Source: an uncultured Thermodesulfobacteriota bacterium (GTDB taxonomy: Bacteria; Desulfobacterota; B13-G15). Taken from it: a stretch of 64,000 bases of DNA. The DNA is taken from NCBI GenBank assembly GCA_964543765.1, contig CAZIZI010000005.1, positions 6,121 to 70,120 on the forward strand. Direction: 5' to 3'. Below, piece after piece: positions 1,699 through 62,641 of this stretch; the first letter of the stretch is position 1; each line of letters starts with the position of its first letter. Below the pieces are notes generated by a model. That model made no database searches. It worked only from the letters and a program-made list of their open reading frames with translations, and was not told the origin of the DNA. A program made the translations under genes and the position numbers.

Positions 1699-2136
1699 AT
1701 GAAGGAAAAAAAGGAACAGGATACCCGTTTTGAGAAGTTTGGGGTTGTGAGTTTTACTGCTATAAGCAAAGTGAACGATTTTATCGATTACTTGGAAAAG
1801 GGCAAATTGGCGGGGACTCGTTGTAAGAAGTGCGGTAAGCTTTATTTCCCTCCTCGGGCGGACTGCTGCGAATGCTTATCGAGCGAGGTAGAGTGGTTTG
1901 AAGTAGAGGGTAAGGGCAAGCTTTTGAGCTTTACGCGCTTGACTTACGCCCCTGTGGGGTTTGAGAAGGTCTTGCCTTACACCTTGGGGCTTTTAGATTT
2001 TGGGCAATACAAGGTTTTCGGTTGGATCTCCAAGGATATCCCTGAAGAAGAGCTTAAGGTCGGTATGGAGATGGTCCCTGAAGTGATAAGGCTTGAAGGG
2101 GATAGATTGCTTTATCACTTCGTCAAGGCTTCATAG
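1699..2136 (+). CDS. DUF35 Zn-ribbon/OB-fold protein (thiolase partner)
   Basis: CKKCGK...CCEC zinc ribbon followed by an OB-fold region. Lies 5 nt downstream of the thiolase gene, the usual pairing. Confidence 0.75.
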   Translation: MKEKKEQDTRFEKFGVVSFTAISKVNDFIDYLEKGKLAGTRCKKCGKLYFPPRADCCECLSSEVEWFEVEGKGKLLSFTRLTYAPVGFEKVLPYTLGLLDFGQYKVFGWISKDIPEEELKVGMEMVPEVIRLEGDRLLYHFVKAS

Positions 2137-3044
2137 TAAAGGCGATGATGGAAAAGGCGAGACCTTATTTTTCCCTTTTTCATAAGCTTTTCGATCAATG
2201 GAAGGATTTCTCCTTCCTCAAAGCCCAGGCTTATCACGAGGTCTTCTAAGGTTTGAGGTCTTGTATCCAGTATCCTAAGGATCCTCTCCTCAAGGTCTTC
2301 ACGAGGGGAGGATCCTTTTTTTTGGTGAGAAGAGGAGATAAGAAAAGCCTTGGGTCCGAGTTCAGAGGCTATGGCTTTAAGCCTTTCTTCCGGTACCGGA
2401 TAGGCGTAATCTTCAGCTCCAGGCCTTGAGACGGTGTGAACGTGAACCAAATCAGGGTCTATTTGATAAATTACCTCATTCAACAACGCTATATCAGGCG
2501 GATTATCGTTTATGCCCCGACAAAGGAGTACCTCAAGCCATATCTTCCCCTTAAAGACCTTCCGAAAGTCCTTAAGGCCTTGAATAATATTTTCGAGCTT
2601 CAGGTCCGGGTGGGGTCTATTGAGGGTCTCAAAAACACTGGGGTTTGCCGTATCAAGGGAGGGTAAGATCACATCCGCAAGAAGAAGCGCCTCTTTTACC
2701 TCATCCATAAATAAAAGGGAGCTATTGGTTATGACCGCCAATGGATAAGGGCTCATTTCCCTTAATTCCTTAAGAAGATCACCTATTCTTGAATGTAAGG
2801 TGGGTTCGCCCGAACCGGAAACGCTTAGAAAATCAAGCCATTTCGGGGGATTCTTCAGGGCTTCTTCTACTTCTCGAAGTATTTCTTCTAAAGGGATGTA
2901 CTCCTCCCTTTTTATGGTCTTATTGGTGGTCCTTCCCACTTGGCAGTAGATACAATCGAAACTACAAGTCTTTTTGGGGACAAGATCGATCCCTAAACTT
3001 ATGCCGAGCCTTCGAGACATGACTGGACCATAAACGTATTTCAT
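2115..3044 (-). CDS. radical SAM protein (COG0731-like, YGPVxSRRLG family)
   Basis: N-terminal YGPVMSRRLGISLGI and CSFDCIYC (CxxxCxxC). Confidence 0.7.
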   Translation of the reverse strand: MKYVYGPVMSRRLGISLGIDLVPKKTCSFDCIYCQVGRTTNKTIKREEYIPLEEILREVEEALKNPPKWLDFLSVSGSGEPTLHSRIGDLLKELREMSPYPLAVITNSSLLFMDEVKEALLLADVILPSLDTANPSVFETLNRPHPDLKLENIIQGLKDFRKVFKGKIWLEVLLCRGINDNPPDIALLNEVIYQIDPDLVHVHTVSRPGAEDYAYPVPEERLKAIASELGPKAFLISSSHQKKGSSPREDLEERILRILDTRPQTLEDLVISLGFEEGEILPLIEKLMKKGKIRSRLFHHRLYYEALTK

Positions 3045-3061
3045 TCACTATCCCTCACCCT

Positions 3062-3619
3062 TTATCTTTCACCAAAAACTTCCTTATATAAGAACTCTCG
3101 AACTTCCTTTCTCTTCCTGGGTTCGGGGATTTCCTCAGGTAGGCCTAAAGGAATAATCACCACCACCTCCCTGTCCTCGGGAACTTTTAGGATCTCCTTT
3201 ACCCTTTTCGCGTCAAAGGCTCCTACAATAACCGTCCCCAATCCCTTTTCCCAAGCCGCAAGACAAAAATTTTGAACTGCAAGCCCCACGTCAAACATAA
3301 GCCAGTCACCTTTGTCAGTAGCGGGTTTTCCTTGAAAATACCCAGCCTTCCCCTTTTGTCCCAAAAACACCAGGACCCAGGGAGCCTTTTTGGTGGCTTC
3401 ATAAGCCGGATTGTGAGGATGGGAACTCAAAAGAGTTTGGGCCAAGCTTTCCTTCGTTTCAGGATTTCCTACAAGTATCACCTCCCAACATTGAGTGTTA
3501 GCCCACGAAGGGGCCCATTTTACGGCCTCAAGTAGCTCCAGGACCGTTTCTTCCGAGATTGGGTCACTTTTCATCTTCCTTATGGATCTTCTCCCCCTTA
3601 TGGCTTCCCAAACTTCCAT
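3062..3619 (-). CDS. nitroreductase family protein
   Basis: RRSIRKM...VLELLEAVKWAPSWANTQCW nitroreductase fold signature. Confidence 0.75.
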   Translation of the reverse strand: MEVWEAIRGRRSIRKMKSDPISEETVLELLEAVKWAPSWANTQCWEVILVGNPETKESLAQTLLSSHPHNPAYEATKKAPWVLVFLGQKGKAGYFQGKPATDKGDWLMFDVGLAVQNFCLAAWEKGLGTVIVGAFDAKRVKEILKVPEDREVVVIIPLGLPEEIPEPRKRKEVREFLYKEVFGER

Positions 3620-3620
3620 T

Positions 3621-4412
3621 CTATCCTCCTTTTAAAAGGATTCTGGCCTTGAGGGTTAAAGGATATCCGGGTTCTTGATTGAGCATTCGGAAGGATCTAT
3701 TCGCCAACCGTTTTAAGGAAGTGCGGAAGGTTTTGCTTCCCTCAAAATATAAGAACCCTCCTTCTTCTTTCGAGGCCAAAAGCAACTCGGGTTCAAATGG
3801 AATCGCCCCAAGGAGCTTAAGCTTTAAGCCCCTTGGTCTGTGCCACGATTCCTTGTTGAGAACTACCCCTATCGGTTTAATCCCTAATTGTCGGAAAAGG
3901 GTGTTAAGCCTTTTCACCTCAAAAACCGCTCCCCTAGAAGAGTCACTCACAAACAACACTTGAGCCTTTCCCTTGAGAAGTTCGCCCAATGTAAGATGCT
4001 CCTCTCCTATTCCAGGAGGCATATCGATTAACAAAAGCTCAAGATCCCCCCATTGGACTTTATTCAAAAAATGCTGTAAAACCCTGTGCCTTATGGGTCC
4101 CCTCCAGCTCACCGGAGTCCATCGTCGTTCCAAAAAGAGACCAAGCGACAAGACCTTTAAGCCTCTTACCTCCAAAGGTTCAATGTCTTCCTTCAAGGTC
4201 TCAATGCCCAAAGGAGGAATCCCCAGATAAAGGGGAATATCGGGTGAGGAGAGATTTGCATCTAAAATTCCAACCCTTTTTCCTTTCTCTAACCACCTCA
4301 GTGCCAAAAGAAGACTCAAGGTAGTTTTACCTACTCCTCCTTTACCTACAACCAAAAGATAATTCTTTATCTCCAATTCTATGCCTCCAAAAATCTTTTT
4401 GTTTCCCTTCAA
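3621..4412 (-). CDS. MinD/ParA/Mrp-superfamily P-loop ATPase
   Basis: Deviant Walker A VVGKGGVGKTT. No CxxC Fe-S carrier motif is seen. Confidence 0.65.
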   Translation of the reverse strand: MKGNKKIFGGIELEIKNYLLVVGKGGVGKTTLSLLLALRWLEKGKRVGILDANLSSPDIPLYLGIPPLGIETLKEDIEPLEVRGLKVLSLGLFLERRWTPVSWRGPIRHRVLQHFLNKVQWGDLELLLIDMPPGIGEEHLTLGELLKGKAQVLFVSDSSRGAVFEVKRLNTLFRQLGIKPIGVVLNKESWHRPRGLKLKLLGAIPFEPELLLASKEEGGFLYFEGSKTFRTSLKRLANRSFRMLNQEPGYPLTLKARILLKGG

Positions 4413-4414
4413 AC

Positions 4415-4873
4415 CTAAACTTGGGCCTCCTCCACCTCCTTTCGTTTTTCCTGTTGATAAGCTTTTACTTTCTCCCTTACTTGAGGATCGTAAAGCCCAA
4501 TGATCTTAGCTGCCGCTAAAGCTGCTTCTTCGGGTTCAAGAATCACCAAGGGGGCTACCCCGGAAGGCATCCTTAAGCTTGAGAAAATGTCAACCCCACC
4601 GAACTTATCACTGGGGACCGGACAGGCGATAACGGGTTTATAGGTTTGTGCATCCACAAGCCCACTTAAGGCATTGCTCCTTCCGGCTACAGTTATGAAA
4701 AGCTCCACCTCTTCTTCGAATTCCCTTACAAGTTGCAGGACCTTTTCTGGAGTCTTATGAGCCGAAGCAACCTTCATGATCACCTCAAGACCGAAAAGCT
4801 CAAGGTTTTTTTTTATCCTTTCACAATGCGAAAGATCCGATTTCGAACCCATAAAAATGGCGACCTTTCTCAT
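4415..4873 (-). CDS. purE: N5-carboxyaminoimidazole ribonucleotide mutase
   Basis: MGSKSD...SAHKTPEK...AGRSNALSGLVDAQTYKPVIACP, the PurE signature. Confidence 0.85.
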   Translation of the reverse strand: MRKVAIFMGSKSDLSHCERIKKNLELFGLEVIMKVASAHKTPEKVLQLVREFEEEVELFITVAGRSNALSGLVDAQTYKPVIACPVPSDKFGGVDIFSSLRMPSGVAPLVILEPEEAALAAAKIIGLYDPQVREKVKAYQQEKRKEVEEAQV

Positions 4874-12770: not shown

Positions 12771-12799
12771 TTGACAATTTTTAAACTTTCTTATAGAGT
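12771..12799 (+). promoter_or_regulatory. sigma70-like promoter (TTGACA, 17-nt spacer, TAGAGT) ending 6 nt before the ATG, implying a leaderless or near-leaderless mRNA
   Basis: Near-consensus hexamers. No SD sequence is present before ATG 12806. Confidence 0.4.
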
Positions 12800-12805
12800 G
12801 CTTCT

Positions 12806-14827
12806 ATGGTGCGGTTGAAGGGGCTAGTGCTTCCTTTTTTAGCCTTTTTGATCCTTTTCTCCTTAAGACTTTATCAAGCCAATTTTATCTTCAAGGAAAA
12901 AGAGTTTTATTTTTGGGGCAAAAACATTCCCCTGCTTTCTTCTTCTGACGGTTATTACTTTTTGCGCCTTGCCCATCTTTTTAAAGAAGGTTCCTATAAA
13001 GGGAAAGCACCTGATCCCTTGAGGAATGCCCCTGATAATCAACTTAACCCTGATTCCGAAAGGGCCGTGAGGTTTCCCTCGATTCCTCCTCTTATTTCGG
13101 TTCTTTTGGCCTTTTTGTCTTATTTGACGGGGGTTTCTCCCGAGAGGGTTTTTGTGGTTTTTCCATTAATCCCCTTTTTGGGCTCTCTTTTAGCCTTTCC
13201 GCTTTATGGAATAGGGAAGAGGCTTTGGGGAGAGCTATGTGGTTTTGGTATGGCTTTAGGGGGTGGGTTATGTCTTGAGTACGTCATAAGGACCGACCTT
13301 TTGAGGATCGATACTGAAGCAATAGCTTTGGTGTTTTTCTTTGCGGTTATTTATTCCATGTTTTTGCTCCTTGAGGATTTCAATCTGAAAAACCTGATCT
13401 TGTTTAGCATTTTCGTTCATCTTTACCAGTGGTGGTACAGCCACCCAGGTTTACTCTTACCCCTTTTGGTGGCTTACGGTTTGACCTTTTTTTTGGTCGA
13501 AAAATTATCCCTTAAGGAATCGGCAAAAAGAACGCTTATTTTAGCCCTTTTTTCAAATCCCTTAATACTTTTCAACGGGATTTTTAACCTTTTGCAGATG
13601 ATAAGTGGCTATATACCTGGGCTTTTGCCCGAACAATTGGGCTTTATACCTCGTTCGGTTTTTGCTCGCTCAGTAAGCGAACTGCAAAGGCTTCCCATTA
13701 AGGTCGTTCTTTCCATGGTTTCAAGTCATTATGTGATTGGCTTCTTAGGTCTTTTTGGCTTTTTGGTTATTTTTCTTAAAACCAGAAGGCCCCTTTTGAT
13801 CTCCCCTCTTTTTATACTTGGCCTAATGAGCCTTTTTGGAGCGAGGCGTTTTATGATATGGCTTGGCCCCTTTGTAGGGCTTGGCCTTGGGGTTTTGCTT
13901 CAATATTGCTTTGAGGTCTTAAAGGGAAGGTTAAAATTTAATCCCGTACTCATAAAGGTGGCTTTATTGATCTTATTGCTTCTTTCAAGCGTTTCCCCTA
14001 AAAGTCTGACTTTTGTTCCCCTTTGCCCCTACGGGAGGCCCCTTTTGGAAGGAATAAAGGAGCTCGAAAGGATAACTCCGGAAGGAAGTTTCGTATGGTC
14101 CTGGTGGGATTACGGTTATGTTATCTCCCTTGTAGCCAAAAGGCCCGTTTATCATGATGGAGGAAGTTGGGGAGGGCCAAAGAGCATTCTTGTGGCAAGG
14201 TCATTGGCCTTAGATGATCCCGAAAAAGCCTATAACATCATTAACGGCACCACCTCCCTTGGAGAAGAGGGGATAAGGGAGCTTCTTGAAAAGGGGGAAA
14301 GTCCTTCTTCCATAATAAGCCAGATAGAGAACGGGCTTTACAATAAGGAGTTGAAAAGTAAGATTTACCTTCTTTTAACGGGTGATGACATAAGTAAATT
14401 TTTTTGGATCTCCTTTTTTGGAACTTGGGATCCCGAAAGGGAAAAGGCAGAACACCTTTTTTACTTTCCCCTTGGTTTATGCAAGATGAATGAGGAAAGG
14501 ATAAGGTGTCAAAATGGGATTTTTGAGCTTAAAAAAGGGATCTTACAATTAAGGGGAGGGGACGTTATAAAGGTAGGAAGGGTCAAGATGGTTGAACTAG
14601 ATGATAGGGATTTTCCTCAAAAAAGGGAAAACCTGAAAGAAGGGGATGGTTTTTTCCTTATTTTAGTGAAAAAGAAAGACCATCTTTTTGGATGGGTGGC
14701 TCATCCCAAGGTCCAAAGCACCATGTTTCAAAGGCTTTTCTTTGAGGAGGGTGAAGTCGGAAACTTCAAGCTCGTTTTTTCAAATTTCCCTTATCTTCGA
14801 GTTTTTGAGGTAACTGAAAGAAGATGA
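12806..14827 (+). CDS. oligosaccharyltransferase, PglB/STT3 family (N-glycosylation catalytic subunit)
   Basis: About 13 TM helices. SSDGYYFLRLA in the first external loop resembles PglB NDGYAFAEGARD. WWDYGY lies at 14102-14119, followed by HDGGSWGGPKS...SLALDDPEKA, which aligns to PglB VDGGKHLGKD...SLSKDEQAA. Confidence 0.75.
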   Translation: MVRLKGLVLPFLAFLILFSLRLYQANFIFKEKEFYFWGKNIPLLSSSDGYYFLRLAHLFKEGSYKGKAPDPLRNAPDNQLNPDSERAVRFPSIPPLISVLLAFLSYLTGVSPERVFVVFPLIPFLGSLLAFPLYGIGKRLWGELCGFGMALGGGLCLEYVIRTDLLRIDTEAIALVFFFAVIYSMFLLLEDFNLKNLILFSIFVHLYQWWYSHPGLLLPLLVAYGLTFFLVEKLSLKESAKRTLILALFSNPLILFNGIFNLLQMISGYIPGLLPEQLGFIPRSVFARSVSELQRLPIKVVLSMVSSHYVIGFLGLFGFLVIFLKTRRPLLISPLFILGLMSLFGARRFMIWLGPFVGLGLGVLLQYCFEVLKGRLKFNPVLIKVALLILLLLSSVSPKSLTFVPLCPYGRPLLEGIKELERITPEGSFVWSWWDYGYVISLVAKRPVYHDGGSWGGPKSILVARSLALDDPEKAYNIINGTTSLGEEGIRELLEKGESPSSIISQIENGLYNKELKSKIYLLLTGDDISKFFWISFFGTWDPEREKAEHLFYFPLGLCKMNEERIRCQNGIFELKKGILQLRGGDVIKVGRVKMVELDDRDFPQKRENLKEGDGFFLILVKKKDHLFGWVAHPKVQSTMFQRLFFEEGEVGNFKLVFSNFPYLRVFEVTERR

Positions 14828-15396
14828 GGGGTCTTTTAATAATTTTCTTAAGTGTTCTTTTTCTTTTCCCTTCTTTGGGCCTTTCACTTGAGGGAAAGGT
14901 CATAGAGGTTTTTGATGGTGATACCATATTGGTTTTAATTGATGGGCAAGAGGTAAAAGTGAGGCTTTATTGTATAGATGCCCCTGAGCTTTTACAACCC
15001 TATGGGAGAACTGCCAAGGATTTCTTATCGAGACTCCTTTTGGAGAAAAACGTTAAGGTAAAAGAGAGAGGAACTGACCAGTATGGGCGGGTTTTGGGAG
15101 AGGTATTTCTTGATGGGGAGATCTCGGTAAATGAGGAGCTCGTAAAAAGCGGGATGGCCTGGGTTTACAGAAAATACTGTAAGATCCCTTCCTATTTTAC
15201 CCTCGAAAAAACGGCAAGGGAAAATAGAGTTGGCTTATGGGAAGATGAAAGCCCCATTCCCCCCTGGGAATACCGTAAAAAAGAAAGGGAGAGAGGAATT
15301 GAGCTGGGGAATACGTATTTTCTTTTAGTCCTTTTACTTTTAGTGCTTTTTCTAAGCCTCAGTTGGAGAAGAAAAGGAAGAAGGAGAAAAAATTAG
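14824..15396 (+). CDS. SNase-like thermonuclease, secreted with a C-terminal membrane anchor
   Basis: VFDGDTILV...VRLYCIDAPE is the staphylococcal nuclease motif. N-terminal signal peptide; C-terminal hydrophobic segment plus RRKGRRRKN tail. ATGA overlap with the OST gene. Confidence 0.75.
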   Translation: MRGLLIIFLSVLFLFPSLGLSLEGKVIEVFDGDTILVLIDGQEVKVRLYCIDAPELLQPYGRTAKDFLSRLLLEKNVKVKERGTDQYGRVLGEVFLDGEISVNEELVKSGMAWVYRKYCKIPSYFTLEKTARENRVGLWEDESPIPPWEYRKKERERGIELGNTYFLLVLLLLVLFLSLSWRRKGRRRKN

Positions 15397-15397
15397 C

Positions 15398-15426
15398 TTG
15401 ACAAACACCTTTTTATGGCATTAAAT
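15398..15426 (+). promoter_or_regulatory. sigma70-like promoter (TTGACA, 17-nt spacer, TTAAAT) for the pilin genes
   Basis: -35 at 15398-15403 and -10 at 15421-15426. AAGGAGGTGGAGG RBS before ATG 15511. Confidence 0.45.
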
Positions 15427-15510
15427 GTATTAGATGAAACAAAGGGATTCTCCAGAAGTTTGAATTGAGTTAAAATTTTTAAAATTTTAAACCTTTAAAG
15501 GAGGTGGAGG

Positions 15511-16008
15511 ATGGAAGTTTTAAGTGTTTTAAAGAAAAGGGTGAAGGCGAAAAAGGGTTTCACGCTGATTGAGTTGATGATCGTTGTTGCCATTTTGGGC
15601 ATTTTGGCCGCCATAGCTATTCCCACCTATATGGATTATACGAAAAGGGCGAAGGTAAGTGAGGCAATAAGCTTGCTTTCGGGAATGGCGAATGCCATAG
15701 CGGAGTATCATACTTCATATGGAAGTATGCCAACTAGCATAGACGATATTGGAGGAGGAAAAACAAGTAGATATGTGACCAGTATGACGTGGGGAGGAAG
15801 AGAGACATACGGCAACAACACTTATTGTTCCATAAATGCAACCCTTGGCAACATTGGAACAGGAGTTGATAGTAAGACGCTTACCCTTTATGTGATTTAT
15901 AGGGCAAATAATGAGACTTATGATAAATGTTGGGAATGGAGCATTGAGGATAAATACGTTCCTACAAGCGTTCGAGAAAAGAGATTTAATACTCCTAACT
16001 GTCCATGA
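15511..16008 (+). CDS. type IV pilin (prepilin with class III signal)
   Basis: KKG|[22 protein letters not shown] has Gly-1, Phe+1 and Glu+5. Three N-x-S/T sequons lie in the C-terminal globular part. Confidence 0.85.
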
Positions 16009-16036
16009 TCTTAAAACTTCTTTCTTAAAATAACCC

Positions 16037-16070
16037 AAGGCCTGGGGCCTTTTGGTTCCAGGCCTTTTAA
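16037..16070 (+). terminator. intrinsic terminator-like hairpin between the two pilin genes
   Basis: AAGGCCTGG (16037-45) pairs with CCAGGCCTT (16058-66). TTTTAAAA follows and abuts ATG 16072. Confidence 0.45.
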
Positions 16071-16071
16071 A

Positions 16072-16509
16072 ATGAAGATGAAGAAGGGTTTGACTTTACT
16101 TGAAGTGATGATTGTGGTTGCCATAATTGGGATTTTGGCAGCGATTGCCATTCCTTCCTATACTAAGTATGTGAAAAGGGCAAAAAGAGCTGAAGCTTTT
16201 AATGCCTTAATGACCATTCATGCGGCTCAAGAGATGTATAAGGCAGAACATGGAGTTTATACCGATAATTGGTCAAAACTTCCTGGGTGTTCCCCGAATA
16301 TGGCCAAGGAGTATACGATTTACCTTAATTTTAGTGATGGCAATTACACCGCCACTGCGGTTCCCTATGGAAGACAAGCAGGGGACTACTGTTTTAGGAT
16401 TTCTTATAACGGAAGTAAGGAGTGTGCCGTTCATTTTCCCACGGGAAACTGTACAGGTGTTCAATGTTGCCAATCTTTCCAAGAGTGTTCCTGGGAAACC
16501 CTTCGTTAA
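16072..16509 (+). CDS. type IV pilin-like protein, Cys-rich, with 4 N-glycosylation sequons
   Basis: MKMKKG|[22 protein letters not shown] (Leu+1, Glu+5). Sequons are NFS, DGNYT, NGS and NCT; 9 Cys in the C-terminal 80 aa. No SD sequence is evident. Confidence 0.75.
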   Translation: MKMKKGLTLLEVMIVVAIIGILAAIAIPSYTKYVKRAKRAEAFNALMTIHAAQEMYKAEHGVYTDNWSKLPGCSPNMAKEYTIYLNFSDGNYTATAVPYGRQAGDYCFRISYNGSKECAVHFPTGNCTGVQCCQSFQECSWETLR

Positions 16510-16572: not shown

Positions 16573-17907
16573 ATGGTCTTAAGAAATGGTTACCAGGAAA
16601 GGGTGAGAAGGATCTATCGCTTTATAAGCGAAAACTTTTACCTTAATCGACCTGATCTTGAGGTCAAGGGGGAAAAGTATAACTCGGCCCTTCTTTTTGG
16701 GATCTTAACAGCCCTTTATGGTGGAAAGGAGCTTATAATAGGGGAACCGGGTCTTGGTAAGACCACCTCGGCCGAATACATAAGTTGTCTCATTTACGGT
16801 ATACCCCTTGGCGTCATATGGGGAAGCGAGGTCTCGGGGCATCCCGAACAGACTGAAGAAAAGATCGTGGGAAGGCCAGATCTGGGAGCCCTAAACCAGG
16901 GAAAAGAGGTTGTTGTTTGGAGTAATTTTGTTCAGCTTCCGGTTAAAATCGTCGATGAGATAAATAGGCTCCCCGAAACCAAACAATCGATGATTCTTGA
17001 TGGAGTTGATAGGGGTAATTGGGAGTACCTTAACGAGATGATCATAAATGACGAATACGCCCTTTTTGCCACCGCCAACTATCAAGATCGAGGCACTAAC
17101 ACCATAATAGCGCCTTTAGTGGATAGGTTTGACGTGATGGTCGAATCAAGGCATCCAGGGCCCAATCTGGCCTTTTACATAGGAAGAAGATCAAGGTTTG
17201 ATAATCCTTTAAGACACCAGGAGTTTGAGGAAAGGTATCACAAGCTTTTAAGATCTCAGATCCCCTATAAGGAGAAGCTTCAAGGTCTTGAGGAACTTTC
17301 CGAGGTTTTTAGGGATTACCTGAAGGAGAAGGTGGGAATCGAGAGTCTGAGCAAAGAGGAGCGTTTTTCCATAAGGAAAGAGATGGCCCAAATGCCCCTT
17401 GACCTTGATGCCAATGCCTTTCTAAGGATGGTTCTTGCGGAACTTTCCTTCTGTCACCGTTATGGTCAGAAGAGAAGTGTTGAAGGATGCCCCGAGGGGT
17501 GCCATTATACGGGTTATCTCTGTTATCACGTTAAAAACTGCGCCTCAAACAGGCTTCCCATCTCGGTTATAGGGTATTCTCAAGCCTTGGCTTGGTTCCT
17601 TGAGGACGATGAGGTGGACCTTGAGCATGTAAGGACGGTTCTTCCTTTTACTTTGGCTCATAGAATCCAATGGCGCGACTCCTATATATCCAAAAAGGAA
17701 GGGGAGGGGAGAAATGATCCCCTTCAGATCTATCTGGCCAAAGAGGCTACCGAGGAGATCTTCCATCGTTATACTGAACAAAGGGATTATCTTCTTGATG
17801 CTTTGGCTATTGCCTCAAGGGCCTTTGAGGGAGAGGCGGTTGAACCCCTTGATGGGGATCATCCGATTTATGAGGAGATAAAAAAGGAGATAGCGAGTTT
17901 AAGATGA
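16573..17907 (+). CDS. MoxR-like AAA+ ATPase with a Cys/His-rich insertion
   Basis: GEPGLGKTT Walker A; KIVDEINRLPETKQSMILDGV Walker B/sensor as in the MoxR DEINRAxPxTQSALLEAM; ATANYQD...LVDRFD. CHRYG...CPEGCHYTGYLCYHVKNC at 17452-17541. Confidence 0.7.
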   Translation: MVLRNGYQERVRRIYRFISENFYLNRPDLEVKGEKYNSALLFGILTALYGGKELIIGEPGLGKTTSAEYISCLIYGIPLGVIWGSEVSGHPEQTEEKIVGRPDLGALNQGKEVVVWSNFVQLPVKIVDEINRLPETKQSMILDGVDRGNWEYLNEMIINDEYALFATANYQDRGTNTIIAPLVDRFDVMVESRHPGPNLAFYIGRRSRFDNPLRHQEFEERYHKLLRSQIPYKEKLQGLEELSEVFRDYLKEKVGIESLSKEERFSIRKEMAQMPLDLDANAFLRMVLAELSFCHRYGQKRSVEGCPEGCHYTGYLCYHVKNCASNRLPISVIGYSQALAWFLEDDEVDLEHVRTVLPFTLAHRIQWRDSYISKKEGEGRNDPLQIYLAKEATEEIFHRYTEQRDYLLDALAIASRAFEGEAVEPLDGDHPIYEEIKKEIASLR

Positions 17908-18608
17908 AGAATCCGTTTGAAGAGTTTCGCGGGCAGAGTACAAGGTCAAAGGGGAAAGAACTCCCCTTAGATAGGATCCTCAAAGCCAAAGAGGAGACCC
18001 TTAATCAAATCCTCAAAGGATACGAGAACCTTTTGAAAAACGAGGCAAAGGATCTGGTTTGGCTTATGCAATATAGTACGGTTATTAAGGCCTATAGCAT
18101 AGCGGAAGAGGCCATAAAGGGCATAAATTATGCGGCTGAGGACGTCGAGGAGTTTTGTTATGTGCTGGATAAGACCGATCAGGTCCCCTATTTGATCACT
18201 GGACCGGCAGGGGTTTATATCTCGGCCCTTTGCAATAACGCTCAAGAGGAGGAGATCGTTTTAAGGCTTCAGGATGTGGGTATAAAGATAAACCTTCTTG
18301 GTTACCGACTTCCCGAAGGAAAGAGGCTTATCATTGAAGGGAATGTAGGGGATTTTACGGGGATAAGCCTTGAAGGAGGTGAGCTTATAATTGAGGGAAG
18401 CGCCAAAAATTACACCGGGGCAGGGATGAAAAAGGGCAGGATCATAGTCAAGCAGAACGTGGGCTTTAACACGGGCCACGGGATGACCGGCGGTGAGATC
18501 CTTGTGGGTGGCCGGATCAAGGGGCTTGGAAAGGTGGTTGGAGGGAAGATTTACGAGAAAGGGCAGTTGATCTTTCCAAGCGATGACTATCGGCCATATT
18601 ATTTTTAA
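17904..18608 (+). CDS. GXGXG-motif beta-helix domain protein (glutamate synthase domain-3 / FwdC-like), unknown N-terminal domain
   Basis: C-terminal GNVGDFTGISLEGGELIIEGSAKNYTGAGMKKGRIIVKQNVGFNTGHGMTGGEILVGG shows repeated GxxGxxG. ATGA overlap with the ATPase gene. Confidence 0.6.
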   Translation: MKNPFEEFRGQSTRSKGKELPLDRILKAKEETLNQILKGYENLLKNEAKDLVWLMQYSTVIKAYSIAEEAIKGINYAAEDVEEFCYVLDKTDQVPYLITGPAGVYISALCNNAQEEEIVLRLQDVGIKINLLGYRLPEGKRLIIEGNVGDFTGISLEGGELIIEGSAKNYTGAGMKKGRIIVKQNVGFNTGHGMTGGEILVGGRIKGLGKVVGGKIYEKGQLIFPSDDYRPYYF

Positions 18609-18620
18609 ATTTAAAGAAGC

Positions 18621-20177
18621 ATGTTCGAGGAATTTTTGAGAAAGGTCTGGCCTAAGGTAAGGCGTAATCATTTATTTCCTCAGATACCTCCACCCCAACT
18701 TGTGGAATCCGATGAAGAGGTGGCTTTGGAGATTAAAAGCAAACAGATGACGATCAATGTGAATTACCTTCAAGTTTTGACCGAAAAGATGAACCCCGAG
18801 GATGCTTTGCAGGCCCTTCTTGATCACGGGATATCCCATTACATGTATTGTCCGTGGGACTTTAACACCCATCTGATGCTTTATTCCGAAGCAAAAAAGG
18901 TCTTGAGGGATAAAAGGCTTGCCCAAAAGGCCGCTTCCTACTTTATGGATGTAGTGGCCAATACCTATTGTGTGAAAGAACGTGAGACCAAGATCCCCGA
19001 GCTTTATAGGCATCTGCCGAAGGAAGGGATCCAGAGGATTTTAGCCCTCCTTTATCAGGTGATATGGGGTATAGACTTAGGAGCTCAAGGGGAAGAGGAG
19101 AGCATAAAAAGGCTTTCGCGGATCCCTTATCTGGAAAAGCGACTGTGGAAGGAGAGCATCAAGAAGTTTGCCAAAACGTTGGAGGAGTTTCTCCAGAAAG
19201 AGATGGAGAGCGAGCAAAAAAGCTCTAAAAAAGCCCAAAACCCTTTGGGTGAGCATTCCATTGAAAACTATACGCTTGAAGAAATCGATAAGGGGTTAAG
19301 GGACTTCGCCAGTTCTGTGGATGATATAACGGAGTTTAGGGAAACAGTTGAGGACTTAAAGGATGAGCTTGCGGCGATGGGTTATACCGTAGGGGGTATG
19401 GGGCGAGGGGCAGGTAATCCTATAGATGCGGATCTTCTTTATTACATGAAGCTTGCCGAGAATTACACGCTTCCCATTAAGAAACTGCCCATGGAGAAAA
19501 GCGGGGCCCTTCACCCTCATTCGCATTCTCCGTGGGAAGTAGGGAAGCCCGTTCAGGACATAGATCCCTGGACTAGCTTCGGTAAGATAATGCCCGGTTT
19601 AACTCAGACGTGGGTGAGACGCGAAGGCGAAGTCTTCGGCGAGATGGAGAAGATCCCGGATTGTCTTATAATCATAGATTCCTCGGGAAGCATGACCAAT
19701 CCTCGCGAAAGGCTTTCTTATGCGGTTTTGGGTGCGGCCTGTGCCTGTAACGCTTACCTGAAAAACGGCAAGAAGGTGGCGGTTTATAACTTCTCGGATG
19801 CCTTCAGGGGCAATAAGCTGATCCTTGATTTCTGTAAGGAAAAAGAGTCGATTTATTGGGCCATATGTAGATACTTTGGCGGAGGCACGGCCATTGATCT
19901 TAACGATGTGATGTATCTACTTAAGCAGGCGGAGAAACCCGATATCTTCATCATCACCGATATGCAGATAACCAATTTGGAAAAGCTGATCGACTTCTTT
20001 AACTCCATTGAAAATAGGGTCACAGCCGTTCACATAGGAGAGAACATTTACGCCACGAGATTCCGAGAAGGGTTAAAGCAGAAGAATAACGTCTCCCTTT
20101 TCTTGGTGAAGGATAAGGAGGATATCCCCAAGATAGTGCTGGGAAAAGTAAGAGAATATTTCACCTCCCCTTTTTAA
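18621..20177 (+). CDS. von Willebrand factor A (VWA) domain protein with a MIDAS motif; N-terminal 330 aa uncharacterised
   Basis: CLIIIDSSGSMTNP (DxSxS at 19677-19691) followed by a typical VWA fold. No signal peptide. Confidence 0.65.
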   Translation: MFEEFLRKVWPKVRRNHLFPQIPPPQLVESDEEVALEIKSKQMTINVNYLQVLTEKMNPEDALQALLDHGISHYMYCPWDFNTHLMLYSEAKKVLRDKRLAQKAASYFMDVVANTYCVKERETKIPELYRHLPKEGIQRILALLYQVIWGIDLGAQGEEESIKRLSRIPYLEKRLWKESIKKFAKTLEEFLQKEMESEQKSSKKAQNPLGEHSIENYTLEEIDKGLRDFASSVDDITEFRETVEDLKDELAAMGYTVGGMGRGAGNPIDADLLYYMKLAENYTLPIKKLPMEKSGALHPHSHSPWEVGKPVQDIDPWTSFGKIMPGLTQTWVRREGEVFGEMEKIPDCLIIIDSSGSMTNPRERLSYAVLGAACACNAYLKNGKKVAVYNFSDAFRGNKLILDFCKEKESIYWAICRYFGGGTAIDLNDVMYLLKQAEKPDIFIITDMQITNLEKLIDFFNSIENRVTAVHIGENIYATRFREGLKQKNNVSLFLVKDKEDIPKIVLGKVREYFTSPF

Positions 20178-45797: not shown

Positions 45798-46699
45798 CCA
45801 GATAAGGCAAGCTTAGAAATCTCTAAAGCCAATTGAAGGGCCTTAAGGCCTTCTTTGGCAGTAACAGGAGGTGATGATCCCTCTTGGATGCTTCTCACAA
45901 ACGCCTCTATTTCCTCTTTTAATGCATCCTTTTTTTTACCCCCTTTTTTGATAAGTCCATTCTCTTTAAAAACGAAGCTATGGTTTAAAAGATCCAAAGT
46001 TAACTCACCTTGTTCCTTTATAAAATGGATGTTCCTCACTTTTTGTTGAGCTACCCTGCTTGAGGAAAGCCTTATCTCCACCCCTTCTTCCGTTTCGATG
46101 ATCGCCTGGGCTTCGTCAATAAAAGGAGTTTTCACCCTTTTACCCCATGCCTTAAGTCTTTTAGGCTTTACTCCCACTAGATACTCCAAAAGATCAAGAT
46201 CATGGATCATTAGGTCCAATATCACATCTATGTCGAAATTCCTCTCTGTCCAAGGCGAATGCCTTATCACCTCCACCCTTTTTATGTCCTTTAAGAAGTC
46301 CCAAATGCCTTCCAATGCCCCATTGAACCTTTCAAGATGACCTATTTGTAGTATCAAATTACGGCTTTTTGAGATCTCCTCAAGATGCAGGGCCTCTTCA
46401 AGATTTGAAGTCATGGGTTTCTCTAAAAGTACATGCGTCCCATTGAGGAGGAAATCCTTGGCTATTTTATAGTGAACGGAAGTGGGAGTGGCAATACTTA
46501 CGGCCTCCACCTCCCCCAAAAGTTCTCGGTAATCAAAAAATGGCCTACTTCCTACCTTCCGAGCCACCTCTTGGGCCCTTTCGGGCAAAATATCCACAAC
46601 TCCTACCAGCTCCACTTGGGGCATGGAAGCAAACTTTTGAGCATGAAGTTCTCCCCATCTTCCTACCCCAATTACCGCTATCTTTAGCTTTTCCTTCAT
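45794..46699 (-). CDS. Gfo/Idh/MocA-family NAD-dependent oxidoreductase (candidate UDP-GlcNAc 3-dehydrogenase GnnA)
   Basis: KIAVIGVGRWG Rossmann motif and EKP motif. Embedded between lpxB and fabZ-lpxA. Confidence 0.6.
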   Translation of the reverse strand: MKEKLKIAVIGVGRWGELHAQKFASMPQVELVGVVDILPERAQEVARKVGSRPFFDYRELLGEVEAVSIATPTSVHYKIAKDFLLNGTHVLLEKPMTSNLEEALHLEEISKSRNLILQIGHLERFNGALEGIWDFLKDIKRVEVIRHSPWTERNFDIDVILDLMIHDLDLLEYLVGVKPKRLKAWGKRVKTPFIDEAQAIIETEEGVEIRLSSSRVAQQKVRNIHFIKEQGELTLDLLNHSFVFKENGLIKKGGKKKDALKEEIEAFVRSIQEGSSPPVTAKEGLKALQLALEISKLALSG

Positions 46700-47916
46700 C
46701 GAGTAATTCCCCTTTTGCTACCTTCGAGAAACTCCACCAGATCCTTAACCTCAGGATAGGTGAAAAGCTCGCTATTTTTGATTTCCTCTATACACCCTTT
46801 TAAAGGCTTTGAAGAACGGAAAAGTATCTTATAGGCTTTTCGAAGGGCCCTTATGACCTCATCGGAAAAGCCGTTCCTTTTGAGATTGGTCACGTTAATA
46901 CCATATAATTTAGCCCTTATGCCTGAAGCTGTAACATAAGGAGGTATGTCCTTGGGTACTGCTGTGGCACCCCCTATGAAGGCGAATTTCCCTATTCTCA
47001 CGAATTGATGTACCGCTGCCACCCCTCCTATTATAGCATGATCCCCCACCGTTACATGACCTGCAAGTTGCGCTGCGTTTGCCATTATGACGAAATCGCC
47101 AAGTTGGCAGTCATGAGCCACATGGGCATAGGCCATGATGAAGTTATTATTCCCTACTTTTGTTAAACCGCCTCCAAAACTTGTACCTCGATGAATGGTC
47201 ACAAACTCCCGAATCACCGAATTGTCACCGATTATGACACTGGTCTTTTCACCTTGATAACGGATGTGTTGAGGAGGTGTACCTATGGATGCATGGTGGA
47301 AAATCTGACAATTTTTACCTATGACAGTTCCTTGATCTATTACCACATGGGATCCAATCCAAGTGTTCTCACCGATTTTAACGTCTTCTCCAATAATGGA
47401 ATAGGGTCCTATCTCAACCCCTTCGGCTAATTCACAGGAGGGATGAACTATTGCGGTAGGGTGTATTTGGGGGGATTTGGATTTATTTTCTCGAATCATA
47501 GCCATTATCTCGGCCTCAGCCACAATTTGTCCATTTGCCTTGGCTTTTCCTCGGAAAACCCATATGTTCCCCCTTCTTTTCACCGTCTCCATTTCCAAAA
47601 GCAACTGATCACCGGGTAAAACCGGCCTTCTGAATTTGGCTTCCCTTAGGGCCATGAGGTAAACCCCCTTGCCCTCGGCCTCCTCTCCCATGGCCTTATA
47701 CGCCAAAATCCCCGCTGTTTGAGCCATGGCTTCGATTATCAACATACCGGGCATCAATGGGTCACCCGGAAAATGGCCCGGGAAAAAGGCCTCGTTGTAA
47801 GTGATGCTTTTCAACCCCACAATTCTACGGGGAACTTCTATCTCAATCACTCGATCTACAAGCAGAAAGGGAAAGGCATGAGGTAAAATTTGCATGATCT
47901 CTTTAATGTCCATCAT
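46696..47916 (-). CDS. lpxA: fused 3-hydroxyacyl-ACP dehydratase FabZ / UDP-GlcNAc O-acyltransferase LpxA
   Basis: Residues 1-145 form a FabZ hot-dog fold (LPHAFPFLLVDRV, HFPGDPLMPG). Residues 150-406 show LpxA hexapeptide repeats and its C-terminal helical domain. Confidence 0.85.
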   Translation of the reverse strand: MMDIKEIMQILPHAFPFLLVDRVIEIEVPRRIVGLKSITYNEAFFPGHFPGDPLMPGMLIIEAMAQTAGILAYKAMGEEAEGKGVYLMALREAKFRRPVLPGDQLLLEMETVKRRGNIWVFRGKAKANGQIVAEAEIMAMIRENKSKSPQIHPTAIVHPSCELAEGVEIGPYSIIGEDVKIGENTWIGSHVVIDQGTVIGKNCQIFHHASIGTPPQHIRYQGEKTSVIIGDNSVIREFVTIHRGTSFGGGLTKVGNNNFIMAYAHVAHDCQLGDFVIMANAAQLAGHVTVGDHAIIGGVAAVHQFVRIGKFAFIGGATAVPKDIPPYVTASGIRAKLYGINVTNLKRNGFSDEVIRALRKAYKILFRSSKPLKGCIEEIKNSELFTYPEVKDLVEFLEGSKRGITR

Positions 47917-57512: not shown

Positions 57513-57722
57513 CCATTCAAGTTCCATCTCACCCTTAAGCCTTTCGAGAAAATCTAAGAAGTCTTTTTCAAGCTCTTCTGGCACGTAAACTTCTAAAATC
57601 CCCTCTTTGGGGTCAATTGTTCGAGAAATGCCTAACCCCTCGTAAGATTCGAGCAGGAAGTTGAAGAAAGCTATTTTCTTTTTGGGTACCTTTACCATGA
57701 AGGTTTTAGTGTTACGGAACAT
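57501..57722 (-). CDS. DUF4911-like small protein
   Basis: 73 aa; FNFLLESYEGLGISRTIDPKEG resembles the DUF4911 pattern as I recall it. Confidence 0.45.
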   Translation of the reverse strand: MFRNTKTFMVKVPKKKIAFFNFLLESYEGLGISRTIDPKEGILEVYVPEELEKDFLDFLERLKGEMELEWSRS

Positions 57723-57758
57723 GAAAAAATGATATAAAACTCCTGAAAACTACAAAAG

Positions 57759-58283
57759 ATGAGAAAGGGGAAGGTCGTCCTTATTACTGGAGGGGTAAGA
57801 AGTGGGAAAAACCGCTTTGCCCAACAATTGGCCCTCAAATGGCCTCCTCCGGTTATTTACGTGGCTACGGCTTCAGCTGAAGATGAGGAGATGGAAATAA
57901 GGATAAAAAAACATCAACAATCAAGGCCAAAGGACTGGAGAACCGTAGAGGAGAAAAGTGACCTTATAGGGGTTCTCGGTTCCCTTAAAGAGGTCTCAAC
58001 GGTGATTGTAGACTGTCTGACCTTATGGATTTCGAATTTGATCTTTCTGGGCTTAAACGATGAAGAGATACTCGCAAGAGCTCAGGAGCTTAAAGAGTCT
58101 CTTTCCGTTTCGGATCATCGGGTGATTCTCATCACCAATGAGGTAGGGTGGGGGATAGTTCCGGCTTCAAAGCTCGGTAGACGCTTTCGCGATCTTCAGG
58201 GGATGGTGAACCAGATAATGGCCGAGGGTGCCGATGAGGTCTATCTTATGGTCTCTGGCCTCCCTTTAAGGATAAAACCATGA
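57759..58283 (+). CDS. cobU: adenosylcobinamide kinase / adenosylcobinamide-phosphate guanylyltransferase
   Basis: VLITGGVRSGKNRFAQ P-loop; 174 aa. Confidence 0.85.
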   Translation: MRKGKVVLITGGVRSGKNRFAQQLALKWPPPVIYVATASAEDEEMEIRIKKHQQSRPKDWRTVEEKSDLIGVLGSLKEVSTVIVDCLTLWISNLIFLGLNDEEILARAQELKESLSVSDHRVILITNEVGWGIVPASKLGRRFRDLQGMVNQIMAEGADEVYLMVSGLPLRIKP

Positions 58284-58984
58284 AAGCCCTCTTTACAGCT
58301 TTAAGCTTCCTCACGATCTTTCCATTTCCGCCCTTAGGGGATTTTAAAAAGGCTCCCGGCTTCTTCCCTTTGGTGGGCCTTTTTTTAGGAGCTGTATTGT
58401 GGGGTATTTCGATCCTCGTAGGGAAATTGCCCTCTTATCTTGTGGCTTTTCTCATAGTTCTCTCCTTGATCATTTTGACAAGGGGGCTTCATCTTGATGG
58501 CCTTTCCGATGCGTGTGACGCCTTAATGGGAGGGTTTACCCGAGAGGAGGTTTTAAGGATAATGCGGGATCCGCATACCGGTGCCTTTGGGGTAATGTCC
58601 ATTCAGACCGTAATAGCGGGAAAGGTCCTTTTTTTAATACCCCTTCTTCCTCAGAAAGGGGTTCTTTTTTTGTTTCCCATGTGGGGAAGAACGGGGGTGC
58701 TTTTACCCATGCTTTTTCTTCCTTATTTGAGAGAACAAGGAAAGGTAAGCCCCTTTTATCCTCCAAAAAGGGGGATGACGGTTTTTGGGTTAGTTTTAAG
58801 CGGTTCGGTGAGTTTTTTCCTTTTAGGAATTCGGGGGCTCCTTGGGTTCGGAATTTCTCTCCTATATGGCTTTATGGTTTCCTTTTATTACCGAAGAAGA
58901 CTCGGAGGTTATACGGGGGATCTTCTGGGGGCTTTAATCGAAACCACGGAGTTGGTGGGGCTTTTATGTCTGAACTTTTTTTGA
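58280..58984 (+). CDS. cobS: adenosylcobinamide-GDP ribazoletransferase (cobalamin synthase)
   Basis: Polytopic membrane protein with LSFLTIFPFP N-terminus. ATGA overlap with cobU. Confidence 0.85.
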   Translation: MKALFTALSFLTIFPFPPLGDFKKAPGFFPLVGLFLGAVLWGISILVGKLPSYLVAFLIVLSLIILTRGLHLDGLSDACDALMGGFTREEVLRIMRDPHTGAFGVMSIQTVIAGKVLFLIPLLPQKGVLFLFPMWGRTGVLLPMLFLPYLREQGKVSPFYPPKRGMTVFGLVLSGSVSFFLLGIRGLLGFGISLLYGFMVSFYYRRRLGGYTGDLLGALIETTELVGLLCLNFF

Positions 58985-62009: not shown

Positions 62010-62059
62010 TTTTATTACCCTAAGTTTGACAAACGTGATTTTTTTGATAAATTCTAAAC

Positions 62060-62641
62060 ATGATGCGCCTTGGGATAAAATTAAATAATATCCTTTTATC
62101 CTCAGCATTAAAAGAGTTTATCAAGTCCTTTCTACCCTCCGAGGTTTCAATCGTTGAATTTTCTCAAGAAACTCCTTTGGAGGAGGTTGATCTTTTAATT
62201 TTGGATTACAAAACTCTTTTATCAATTGCTCGGTTTCCCGAGACGAAGGTTTTGCTTTTGGACACGGGTTTAAGCACTTCGGAAAAAAGGACGGCTTTTT
62301 TGCTCTATAATGTCAATGGGATCCTTCAATTGGATGCTTCTCCTGAGTTGTTATTAAAAGCCATTGAGAAACTCACAAGCGGTGAGCTATGGATGGATCA
62401 AGGAACCCTTAGGGAGATCGTGAATTACTCAAAGAACGGACGTGCGGTTTCTGTTTCCTTAACTCCTAGGGAAAAGGAGGTTTTAAGCTTGATATGTAAG
62501 GGGTATTCCAATAAAGAAATAGCCAAGAAGCTTTCCATAAGCCTTTCTACTGTTAAGAACATCCTTCGGAGTCTTTATCGCAAGTTGAACGTCTCAACTC
62601 GTTCAAGCTTACAGGCCCTTTTTATAGAAGGGGAGCCTTAA
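62060..62641 (+). CDS. LuxR/FixJ-family regulator with a degenerate receiver-like N-terminal domain (CsgD-like)
   Basis: C-terminal LTPREKEVLSLICKGYSNKEIAKKLSISLSTVKNIL HTH. The N-terminal domain lacks the canonical acidic pocket. Confidence 0.65.
   Translation: MMRLGIKLNNILLSSALKEFIKSFLPSEVSIVEFSQETPLEEVDLLILDYKTLLSIARFPETKVLLLDTGLSTSEKRTAFLLYNVNGILQLDASPELLLKAIEKLTSGELWMDQGTLREIVNYSKNGRAVSVSLTPREKEVLSLICKGYSNKEIAKKLSISLSTVKNILRSLYRKLNVSTRSSLQALFIEGEP

Follow-up and report, generated by a model that had tools for sequence, protein, structure and literature searches.

The gene at positions 12806-14827 (+ strand) of the 64-kb stretch of DNA analysed here, which we call the window and within which all feature coordinates are counted, encodes a predicted single-subunit oligosaccharyltransferase (OST) of the STT3/GT66 family, 673 aa in length, as assigned by Pfam, an AlphaFold2 model and alignments to PglB. 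Judged by its motifs, this OST is a distinct variant, in which the fold of PglB, the enzyme of Campylobacter lari (ClPglB) and C. jejuni, is joined to a complete eukaryote-type recognition set (SVSE-x-Q, WWDYG and the DK motif) without the arginine that reads the -2 residue of the sequon. The best overall explanation of the data, to which we give a probability of about 0.7, is that the gene encodes an active single-subunit OST that would be translated from a leaderless mRNA, recognise plain N-X-S/T sequons and may take two neighbouring type IV pilins as substrates.

An STT3-family enzyme with the fold of PglB

The OST was recognised by two hidden Markov models (HMMs) of the STT3 family, PF02516 (STT3 N-terminal; E=9.4e-10, 39 bits against a gathering score of 24.5) and PF21436 (STT3/PglB/AglB core; E=5.8e-9, 37 bits against 23). 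Its scores lay below the cutoffs of PF22627 (AglB_core-like; 15.9 bits vs 27), of the NCBIfam PglB equivalog NF050801 (74.3 bits vs 1300) and of the archaeal model TIGR04154 (archaeo_STT3; 17.2 bits vs 450). Because the STT3 HMMs are significant and the catalytic acids of external loops 1 and 5 (EL1 and EL5) are present, as described below, the open reading frame (ORF) is, by sequence and model, a bona fide STT3-family catalytic subunit. The original prediction had placed an STT3-family enzyme here, with a WWDYGY motif at 14102-14119 and an Asp codon at 12947-12949; the ORF and both sets of coordinates are exact, and the matches to PF02516 and PF21436 uphold the family assignment.

The protein begins with a membrane domain of many helices, and from about residue 400 onwards it forms a periplasmic domain. 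An AlphaFold2 model built from a 62-sequence alignment reached a mean predicted local distance difference test score of 95.1 and a predicted template modelling score of 0.92, with the only dip in confidence at residues 271-280, the loop ahead of the EL5 motif SVSELQ. The predicted structure has the GT-C fold; its EL1 and EL5 loops are long, and its C-terminal domain is extracytoplasmic. When the model was compared with the PDB by Foldseek, three full-length C. lari PglB structures ranked top, with template modelling (TM) scores of 0.76-0.79 on the query (best match 5ogl, TM 0.79/0.75), followed by eukaryotic STT3 (0.58-0.65) and Archaeoglobus fulgidus AglB (0.55-0.58); other GT-C enzymes (DPY19, ArnT, Emb) scored far lower (0.33-0.46). 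C. lari PglB was also the closest PDB relative in a single-sequence search (E=1e-12) and in a family-profile search, in which it matched across residues 12-711 at E=3.6e-89 and STT3B at 2.8e-17. An archaeal affinity had been considered from a profile search whose next matches were proteins of about 900 aa, two of them labelled Stt3 by JGI, and was overruled by the family-profile and fold comparisons, both of which favour PglB.

On sequence grounds the OST is nevertheless not a PglB orthologue, because it carries the DK motif, SVSE-x-Q and Met304 and scores only 74 bits against the 1300 of the PglB equivalog. The earlier description of the protein as PglB-like thus holds for fold and family relationship and fails for orthology and for the peptide-recognition motifs (DK, SVSE and no counterpart of R331). 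The related statement that the segment after WWDYG aligns to Campylobacter PglB divides in a similar way: the single sequence prefers STT3A, and at the profile and fold level the segment is PglB-like.

Eukaryote-type recognition motifs on a PglB scaffold

The catalytic residues of the OST are invariant or nearly so among 137 relatives. Asp48 in EL1 (12947-12949, +), within SSSDGYYF, corresponds to ClPglB D56 in profile and sequence alignments and is invariant in the 137 family members, and D169-T-E171 (13310-13318, +) aligns with the metal-binding D154-x-D156 of ClPglB. In EL5, the motif SVSELQ (residues 289-294; 13670-13687, +) brings E292 onto ClPglB E319, so that the catalytic acids of both loops have their counterparts in the Campylobacter enzyme. 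Arg348 (13847-13849, +), aligned by profile with ClPglB R375, is likewise invariant in the family. The WWDYGY motif spans residues 433-438 (14102-14119, +; WWDYG 433-437), with WWD 433-435 equivalent to WWD 457-459 of ClPglB. SVSELQ has the eukaryote-type form SVXE with Gln at +2, and the bacterial and archaeal form of the EL5 motif is TIXE (PMC12229607).

The residues that would contact the Ser/Thr of the sequon are of the eukaryotic kind as well. The DK motif is defined as DXXKXXX(M/I) (PMC3703281) and the MI motif as MXXIXXX(I/V/W), the latter corresponding to an Ile-type Ser/Thr pocket. The OST segment DDISKFFWI (residues 527-535; 14384-14410, +), at the start of a predicted helix (528-539), reads D528-xx-K531-xxx-I535 and aligns with DDINKFLWM of STT3A. 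When the C-terminal domain was searched in isolation, its best PDB match was mammalian STT3A (E=6e-10), the corresponding domain of C. jejuni PglB reached only E=0.035, and HMMER aligned the OST segment TGDDISKFFWI with SSDDINKFLWM of STT3A, the eukaryotic DK motif. Through the family profile, D528, K531 and I535 fall on the MI-motif residues M569, I572 and V576 of ClPglB. An MI motif is ruled out by the residues at these aligned positions, and the choice between MI and DK that the original prediction had left to be scored falls on a canonical DK motif. By its sequence, the OST combines WWDYG and this motif into a Ser/Thr pocket of the Lys type.

R331 of ClPglB reads the acidic -2 residue in D/E-X-N-X-S/T. 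Two independent ungapped alignments place Met304 of the OST (13715-13717, +) at this position; the column is mostly hydrophobic in the family, with Arg in 9 of the 137 members. The OST also carries DGGS where Campylobacter PglB has DGGK.

An NGT sequon is present in the periplasmic domain of the OST itself (N480; residues 480-482; 14243-14251) and occurs in all eight members of its clade, not in the wider family. Self-glycosylation at this site is unlikely because N480 lies inside a predicted helix (472-495), and the site lacks conservation in the wider family.

A family of bacterial STT3 proteins, mostly from thermophiles

A word-indexed search returned nine relatives of the OST, with identities of 91, 82, about 52, 48, 45, 26 and 24%. 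The apparently tiny size of the family (9, then 20 matches) was an artefact of the word filter, since an exhaustive search of 1.84 billion representatives gave 1337 matches, including 144 with E<=1e-30. In length most fall between 640 and 720 aa, and they are 25-35% identical to the OST over the full length. Named members include Desulfurella acetivorans DESACE_03105 and proteins from Desulfurobacterium, Aquificaceae and one Phycisphaerae metagenome-assembled genome (MAG). Databases label them "STT3 domain-containing protein" or "hypothetical", and JGI labels close orthologues dolichyl-diphosphooligosaccharide--protein glycosyltransferase. As far as sequence comparison goes, the OST belongs to an uncharacterised bacterial STT3 family found mostly in thermophiles (Thermodesulfobacteriota, Desulfurella and Aquificota). 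It is not categorically new: the superfamily is known, the bacterial family is already visible in databases, and homologues of PglB had already been reported from Deltaproteobacteria and Aquificae (PMC4894442).

According to a published rule, all PglB-type enzymes have an MI motif and an Ile-type pocket (PMC3703281). At the second position of the DK/MI signature, however, Lys is found in 76 of the 137 relatives (MxxK in 48, LxxK in 14, DxxK in 8, ExxK in 4 and other forms in two), and the rule therefore does not extend to this family. The full DxxKxxxI is restricted to the clade of the OST, with 8 of the 137 relatives.

The closest genomes to the window are uncultured Thermodesulfobacteriota MAGs. 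The fraction of the residues IVYWREL in the window proteins is 0.457, which corresponds by the Zeldovich relation to an optimal growth temperature of about 93 °C, a rough estimate that agrees with the thermophile proposed from the sequence earlier. The source organism is probably a hyperthermophilic member of Thermodesulfobacteriota.

A conserved promoter next to the start codon

A promoter-like sequence lies directly upstream of the OST gene, with a -35 hexamer TTGACA (12771-12776, +), a 17-nt spacer and a -10 hexamer TAGAGT (12794-12799, +) that ends 6 nt before the ATG at 12806 and contains an in-frame TAG (12794-12796). No GGAGG-like Shine-Dalgarno (SD) sequence was found within 30 nt upstream of the gene, and about half of the 60 ORFs of the window have one. 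In a scan of 12 kb the site ties for the top score (10/12). The scan gave 18 promoter-like sites in total, not above the expectation from shuffled sequence (13.9 +/- 4.3), so the match alone is weak evidence, and it is conservation across orthologous loci that makes it convincing. TTGACA is also enriched in the intergenic 3.3% of the window, where 4 of its 17 occurrences lie, each facing a downstream gene.

The -35 hexamer falls inside TTTGACAA, the only upstream block that is invariant across eight orthologous loci; the sequence 5' of it is unrelated among them. In five loci (the window, L001, L003, L008 and L010), TTGACA is followed by 17 nt, the -10 hexamer, 6 or 7 nt and an ATG or GTG start codon, the hexamer being TAGAGT in L001, L003 and L010 as in the window and TAAAGT in L008. 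In the other three (L002, L004 and L005), the arrangement is TTGACA-N18-GATATT with an extended -10 TG, followed by N9-ATG. The upstream neighbour differs by locus and is a co-directional rsmF, a minus-strand FAD/Fe-S oxidoreductase gene or a divergent hisH with a gap of 62-68 nt; where it lies on the opposite strand, transcription of the OST gene must start within the short upstream region. Together, the eight loci show in silico a conserved sigma70-type promoter from which transcription would begin at the OST start codon itself or no more than about 3 nt away, and the transcript is likely to be leaderless or to carry a leader of at most 3 nt. A near-consensus promoter 6 nt before the ATG and the lack of an SD sequence had been read from the window at the outset and are both confirmed; the leaderless translation suggested from them is strengthened, in silico, by the comparison of loci.

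Two alternatives for the start of the protein were considered. Initiation at the GTG of codon 8 (12827), which follows an SD-like GAAGGGG, is unlikely: codons 3-7 of the window, L001 and L003 differ mostly synonymously (CGG/CGT, AAG/AAA, CTA/TTA/TTG), which favours codon 1, the N-terminal Arg/Lys residues are conserved, and the clade of about 52% identity has no alternative start. An N-terminal extension, as in public annotations of 701-718 aa, is ruled out in the window, where the in-frame TAG inside the -10 box, three codons upstream, bars it. The extensions of 28-45 residues in orthologues arise where a 1-nt shift has abolished the TAG stop, and they run across the conserved promoter (L003 10001-10135; L008 4207-4296; L010 4213-4296). 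Annotation errors are the probable explanation, the true start having no SD sequence to mark it.

A second candidate for leaderless expression was noticed elsewhere in the window (62026-62641, +). It encodes a LuxR/GerE-type regulator of 193 aa, CsgD-like by position, without an SD sequence; its putative promoter, TTGACA (62026-62031)-N16-TAAATT-N6-ATG (62060), has the same layout as that of the OST gene.

Nuclease and pilin genes downstream of the OST gene

The gene that follows (14824-15396, +) encodes a staphylococcal-nuclease-like protein (SNase) and is probably co-transcribed with the OST gene, because its start overlaps the OST stop codon (ATGA). The predicted SNase has a hydrophobic N-terminal segment that resembles a signal peptide by eye, together with a C-terminal hydrophobic segment and a basic tail. 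Its gene is present in the orthologous loci of 82-100% identity and absent from the group of about 52%. Next comes a promoter-like site, TTGACA-N17-TTAAAT (15398-15426, +), and the gene of a type IVa major pilin (PilA-like; PF07963 and PF00114; 15511-16008, +), which has a strong SD sequence and encodes three N-X-T sequons (N102, N109 and N134). A G+C-rich hairpin, AAGGCC-TGG-GGCCTT followed by TTTT (16037-16051), is a likely attenuating terminator after this gene, and beyond it lies the gene of a ComP-like minor type IV pilin of 145 aa with five N-X-S/T sequons (16072-16509, +; PF07963 and PF16732, ComP_DUS, E=8e-17). Both pilins have a prepilin leader and N-methylation motif with Glu5 (KKG|FTLIE and KKG|LTLLE).

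The order OST, SNase, pilin, pilin, or the same order without the SNase gene, recurs in each orthologous locus whose sequence continues past the OST stop codon: with the SNase gene in the window, L003, L008/L009 (the 1.6-Mb contig Ga0527077_0006 in the case of L008) and L010, and without it in L002 and L004. Shorter loci show parts of it: L001 has one pilin gene before the contig ends, L005 a 60-aa unannotated ORF at the contig end, and L011 starts inside the block, with the SNase and both pilin genes visible and the OST gene cut off at the contig end. In L013 an OST of 45% identity is followed by a different pilin-like gene. All three upstream rearrangements break exactly 5' of the OST gene, so that OST and pilins remain together.

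SNase, major pilin and ComP-like pilin (14824-16509, +), the last from the family of DNA-uptake-sequence receptors, resemble a DNA-uptake or competence pilus module. Three further genes lie 3' of the pilins (16573-20177, +), encoding a MoxR-like AAA ATPase (AAA_5/AAA_lid_2), a 234-aa protein that matches GXGXG weakly and a 518-aa VWA-domain protein, and are syntenic in all orthologous loci.

Sequons are abundant and directional in the pilins

The two pilins have the highest N-X-S/T densities among the 60 ORFs of the window, 3.45 (ComP-like) and 1.82 per 100 aa, the other ORFs having 0.255; this is 7-13 times the background. Composition-preserving shuffles of the globular parts gave P=0.0003 for the ComP-like pilin of the window, 0.0016 and 0.0002 for the major pilins of L001 and L004, and 0.003 for the ComP-like pilin of L003. 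Across the clade, 22 major pilins carry a mean of 3.59 sequons, compared with 1.28 in 98 other type IVa pilins of similar length taken from the same search (Mann-Whitney p=3e-9).

The excess has a direction. N-x-S/T outnumbers the reverse S/T-x-N by 79 to 31 in the clade major pilins (p=3e-6), and the controls show 125 and 132. At +2, Thr is found 65 times and Ser 14 times, although the two residues are about equally common overall. Counted by alignment column, there are 24 forward and 13 reverse columns, and Thr is the majority residue in 21 of the 24. One sequon, N134-E-T/S, is kept in 18 of 22 clade pilins, and the remaining ones come and go in variable loops. Asp or Glu stands at -2 in only 3 of the 79 sequons, which fits an OST without an equivalent of R331. 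The SNase has no sequon.

Glycan pathway and other genes of the window

Pfam annotation of essentially all 60 ORFs of the 64-kb window found no pgl-type glycosyltransferase, initiating transferase or dedicated flippase, and there are no pgl genes within +/-10 kb of the orthologous OST loci. The view that the pathway for the lipid-linked oligosaccharide (LLO) lies elsewhere, which had been drawn from the absence of pgl genes nearby, therefore stands. Glycan-related candidates in the window are limited to three lipid-A genes, LpxB, KdtA and MsbA, and one gene for a KdsB-like cytidylyltransferase. Among the loci examined, only L006 has adjoining glycosyltransferases: GT9 (heptosyltransferase-like) and GT4 genes (2092-4818) precede P0009, a distant OST relative of 24% identity.

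The lipid-A cluster of the window is complete (BamA, Skp, LpxD, FabZ-LpxA, LpxB, MsbA, KdtA, LpxK), and the organism is therefore a diderm with lipopolysaccharide. Within this cluster, which includes a GFO oxidoreductase gene, a FabZ-like protein (FabA domain) and LpxA (hexapeptide and Acetyltransf_11) are apparently fused in a 406-aa ORF (46696-47916, -). Curli-secretion (type VIII) genes for CsgG (PF03783, E=5e-63) and CsgF (PF10614, E=6e-37) occupy 62638-63983 (-) and adjoin the LuxR-type regulator gene. In the region 57513-58680, long intergenic gaps (57513-57758 and 58284-58680) flank the cobalamin genes CobU, CobT (DBI_PRT) and CobD; no Rfam family, the cobalamin riboswitch included, reached its gathering score anywhere in the window.

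Proposed mechanism and alternatives

We propose that the OST is an inner-membrane protein whose active site faces the periplasm, where it would transfer a preassembled glycan from a lipid carrier, presumably undecaprenyl-diphosphate-linked, to the Asn of N-X-S/T without needing an acidic residue at -2. The genes for glycan assembly would be located elsewhere in the genome. The OST mRNA would be leaderless, translated without an SD sequence and co-transcribed with the overlapping SNase gene. Both downstream pilins may be major substrates that receive the glycan on their globular domains in the periplasm before they are assembled into pili, in the way that AglB modifies archaeal pilins and archaellins. 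From gene order and sequons, we give close to an even chance that the two type IV pilins are N-glycosylated by this OST. Only tentatively do we go further and suggest that a thermophilic Thermodesulfobacteriota lineage N-glycosylates PilA-like and ComP-like pilins at multiple N-X-T sites through a dedicated, co-localised PglB-fold OST with eukaryotic recognition elements. In the literature searched, bacterial pilin glycosylation is O-linked only, and N-linked glycosylation of pilins and archaellins is reported only in archaea.

A number of observations weigh against this proposal, and those on transcription would be accommodated by a leadered OST mRNA, arising by read-through from rsmF or from an earlier start and translated by SD-independent, S1-dependent initiation on an A/U-rich leader, with TTGACA serving another or a minor use. 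The stop codon of the upstream rsmF-like gene at 12767 is just 38 nt from the ATG with no terminator predicted between them, so read-through could also give a leadered mRNA. The 30 nt upstream are A/T-rich, and about 45% of the window ORFs, by crude start calls, also have no obvious SD sequence. Four orthologous loci carry GTG at the putative leaderless start, and AUG is as a rule the start codon with which initiation without a leader works best. In L012 (48% identity), TTGACA is missing from the region upstream of the OST gene. A leader from an upstream gene is nevertheless difficult to reconcile with L002, L004, L005 and L012, where a divergent hisH forces the start inside a gap of 62-68 nt, or with L008, whose upstream gene is on the opposite strand too. 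The first three of these loci, L012 being without TTGACA, keep TTGACA 33 nt from the ATG together with the extended -10 (TGnGATATT); conservation stops abruptly 5' of the invariant block, and the regulator gene starting at 62060 shares the TTGACA-N16-TAAATT-N6-ATG geometry. We regard a leadered mRNA as rather improbable and retain the leaderless transcript.

The observations on substrates would fit an enzyme of general periplasmic N-glycosylation, or one that mainly releases free oligosaccharides, as Campylobacter PglB also does; the position of the pilin genes would then be inherited synteny and the sequons a product of Asn/Ser/Thr-rich loops. Synteny indeed runs on downstream for more than 10 kb through the AAA, VWA, Lon, ArsA and KdsB-like genes, so that adjacency to the pilins is not decisive and could reflect inherited gene order, and the pilins form no self-contained module with the OST, the major pilin gene having its own promoter, SD sequence and terminator. 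The Desulfurella relative has no pilin neighbour. The major pilin of the window is not significant on shuffling (P=0.27), the column-based test of direction is marginal (p=0.05) with sequon counts that are phylogenetically non-independent, and the ComP-like pilins have no forward/reverse asymmetry (15 vs 12). Against a general enzyme stand the synteny boundary exactly at the OST gene in three independent rearrangements, with the pilins staying beside it, and the pilin-like gene next to even the 45%-identity orthologue. The clade pilins, moreover, show a directional excess of N-x-S/T and a 4.6:1 Thr:Ser bias that are missing from the controls, and keep the N134-E-T/S sequon in 18 of 22. On this balance a general or oligosaccharide-releasing OST appears unlikely, though it deserves serious consideration. 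Very much less probable is an STT3-fold glycosyltransferase with lost or altered protein N-glycosylation, for example one with a lipid or polysaccharide acceptor like ArnT. The score far under the PglB equivalog cutoff (74 vs 1300 bits), an immediate family without a characterised member, and a window without LLO genes would agree with it, the last also weighing on the proposal above, as does the fact that the organism is known from metagenomes alone. Conservation, however, extends to every residue responsible for binding metal, acceptor Asn or +2 Ser/Thr (D48, DxE, E292, WWD, K531 and I535), the Ser/Thr pocket is specific to sequon recognition, and ArnT and other GT-C folds match the model far worse (TM 0.33-0.46). 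We therefore keep to an active OST with the pilins as candidate substrates.

Significance

Bacterial N-OSTs are workhorses of glycoengineering, and their main limit is the D/E-X-N-X-S/T requirement of Campylobacter PglB. Recent advances have come from Desulfovibrio enzymes with partly eukaryote-like motifs (PMC4894442, PMC12229607). With the architecture of PglB, eukaryotic motifs, no arginine to read -2 and a probable hyperthermophilic origin, the OST is a candidate robust single-subunit enzyme for plain N-X-S/T; if the proposal is true, it would be a naturally thermostable single-subunit OST with eukaryote-like sequon specificity. That most of its family has a Lys-type pocket is relevant to the evolution of the Ser/Thr pocket across bacteria, archaea and eukaryotes. 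Should the pilins be its substrates, this would be, within the literature searched, the first OST-dependent N-linked pilin glycosylation in Bacteria and a counterpart of the archaeal AglB systems, and the known N-glycosylated filaments would then include type IV pili of bacteria as well as pili of archaea. Such modification could be relevant to how stable the filaments are at high temperature and also, since a ComP-like pilin and a nuclease are encoded alongside, to DNA uptake. The conserved promoter, for its part, would let leaderless expression be tested cleanly on the gene of a polytopic membrane protein from a deep-branching thermophile.

Comparison with known systems

The STT3 proteins of other thermophiles (Desulfurella DESACE_03105, Desulfurobacterium, Aquificaceae) share with the OST a length of about 660-700 aa, 25-35% identity and the same invariant catalytic residues. 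They differ in having mostly a hybrid M/L-xx-K rather than D-xx-K-xxx-I, and the Desulfurella gene lacks pilin neighbours. With archaeal AglB we propose a functional likeness, that of a DK-pocket STT3-family OST modifying multiple N-X-S/T sites on pilin-like globular domains (PMC5131992). In contrast to the AglB systems, the host of the OST is a diderm with a lipid-A pathway, the pilins are of the bacterial type IVa and ComP type, and the enzyme has a PglB fold (TM to A. fulgidus AglB 0.55-0.58).

PglB of C. lari and C. jejuni (PDB 3rce, 5ogl and 6gxc) resembles the OST in being a single subunit of similar size with the same membrane and periplasmic architecture, and the two share D56, D154/D156, E319, R375 and WWD in ClPglB numbering. 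Identity is only about 18%, however, and the recognition elements diverge: MI (M569/I572) in PglB against DK (D528/K531), TIME/TIXE against SVSE, R331 against Met304, and DGGK against DGGS. PglB is encoded in a pgl cluster, whereas the OST has none and its candidate substrates lack D/E at -2. The eukaryotic STT3A and STT3B show the opposite pattern. Their motifs are near-identical to those of the OST (SVSE-x-Q, WWDYGY, DDI-x-KF-x-W-(I/M) and a Lys-type pocket), but they are less similar in fold (TM 0.58-0.65), and in the family-profile search PglB is ahead by about 70 orders of magnitude; the OST, moreover, is a bacterial single subunit with a presumably undecaprenyl-linked donor.

Like the OST, the Desulfovibrio enzymes DgPglB and DmPglB (PMC4894442, PMC12229607) are single-subunit OSTs of bacteria formerly classed as Deltaproteobacteria, and their EL5 motif, SV(I)E followed by Gln at +2, is eukaryote-like too. 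The relaxed or absent -2 rule that we predict for the OST from its sequence has been shown experimentally for them, and a native D. gigas site, TANGT, has no acidic -2 residue (PMC4894442, PMC12229607). They are described as having SVIE, WWDWG, DGGR and "NL" in place of DK/MI, and as keeping the R331-equivalent Arg (PMC12229607). Set beside these published descriptions, the OST differs in having WWDYG and DGGS, in its canonical DK motif and in Met304, which replaces that Arg. On this comparison of motifs, with the Desulfovibrio side taken from the published descriptions, the OST is closer to the eukaryotic motif set than the Desulfovibrio PglBs are, and it carries that set on a PglB scaffold.

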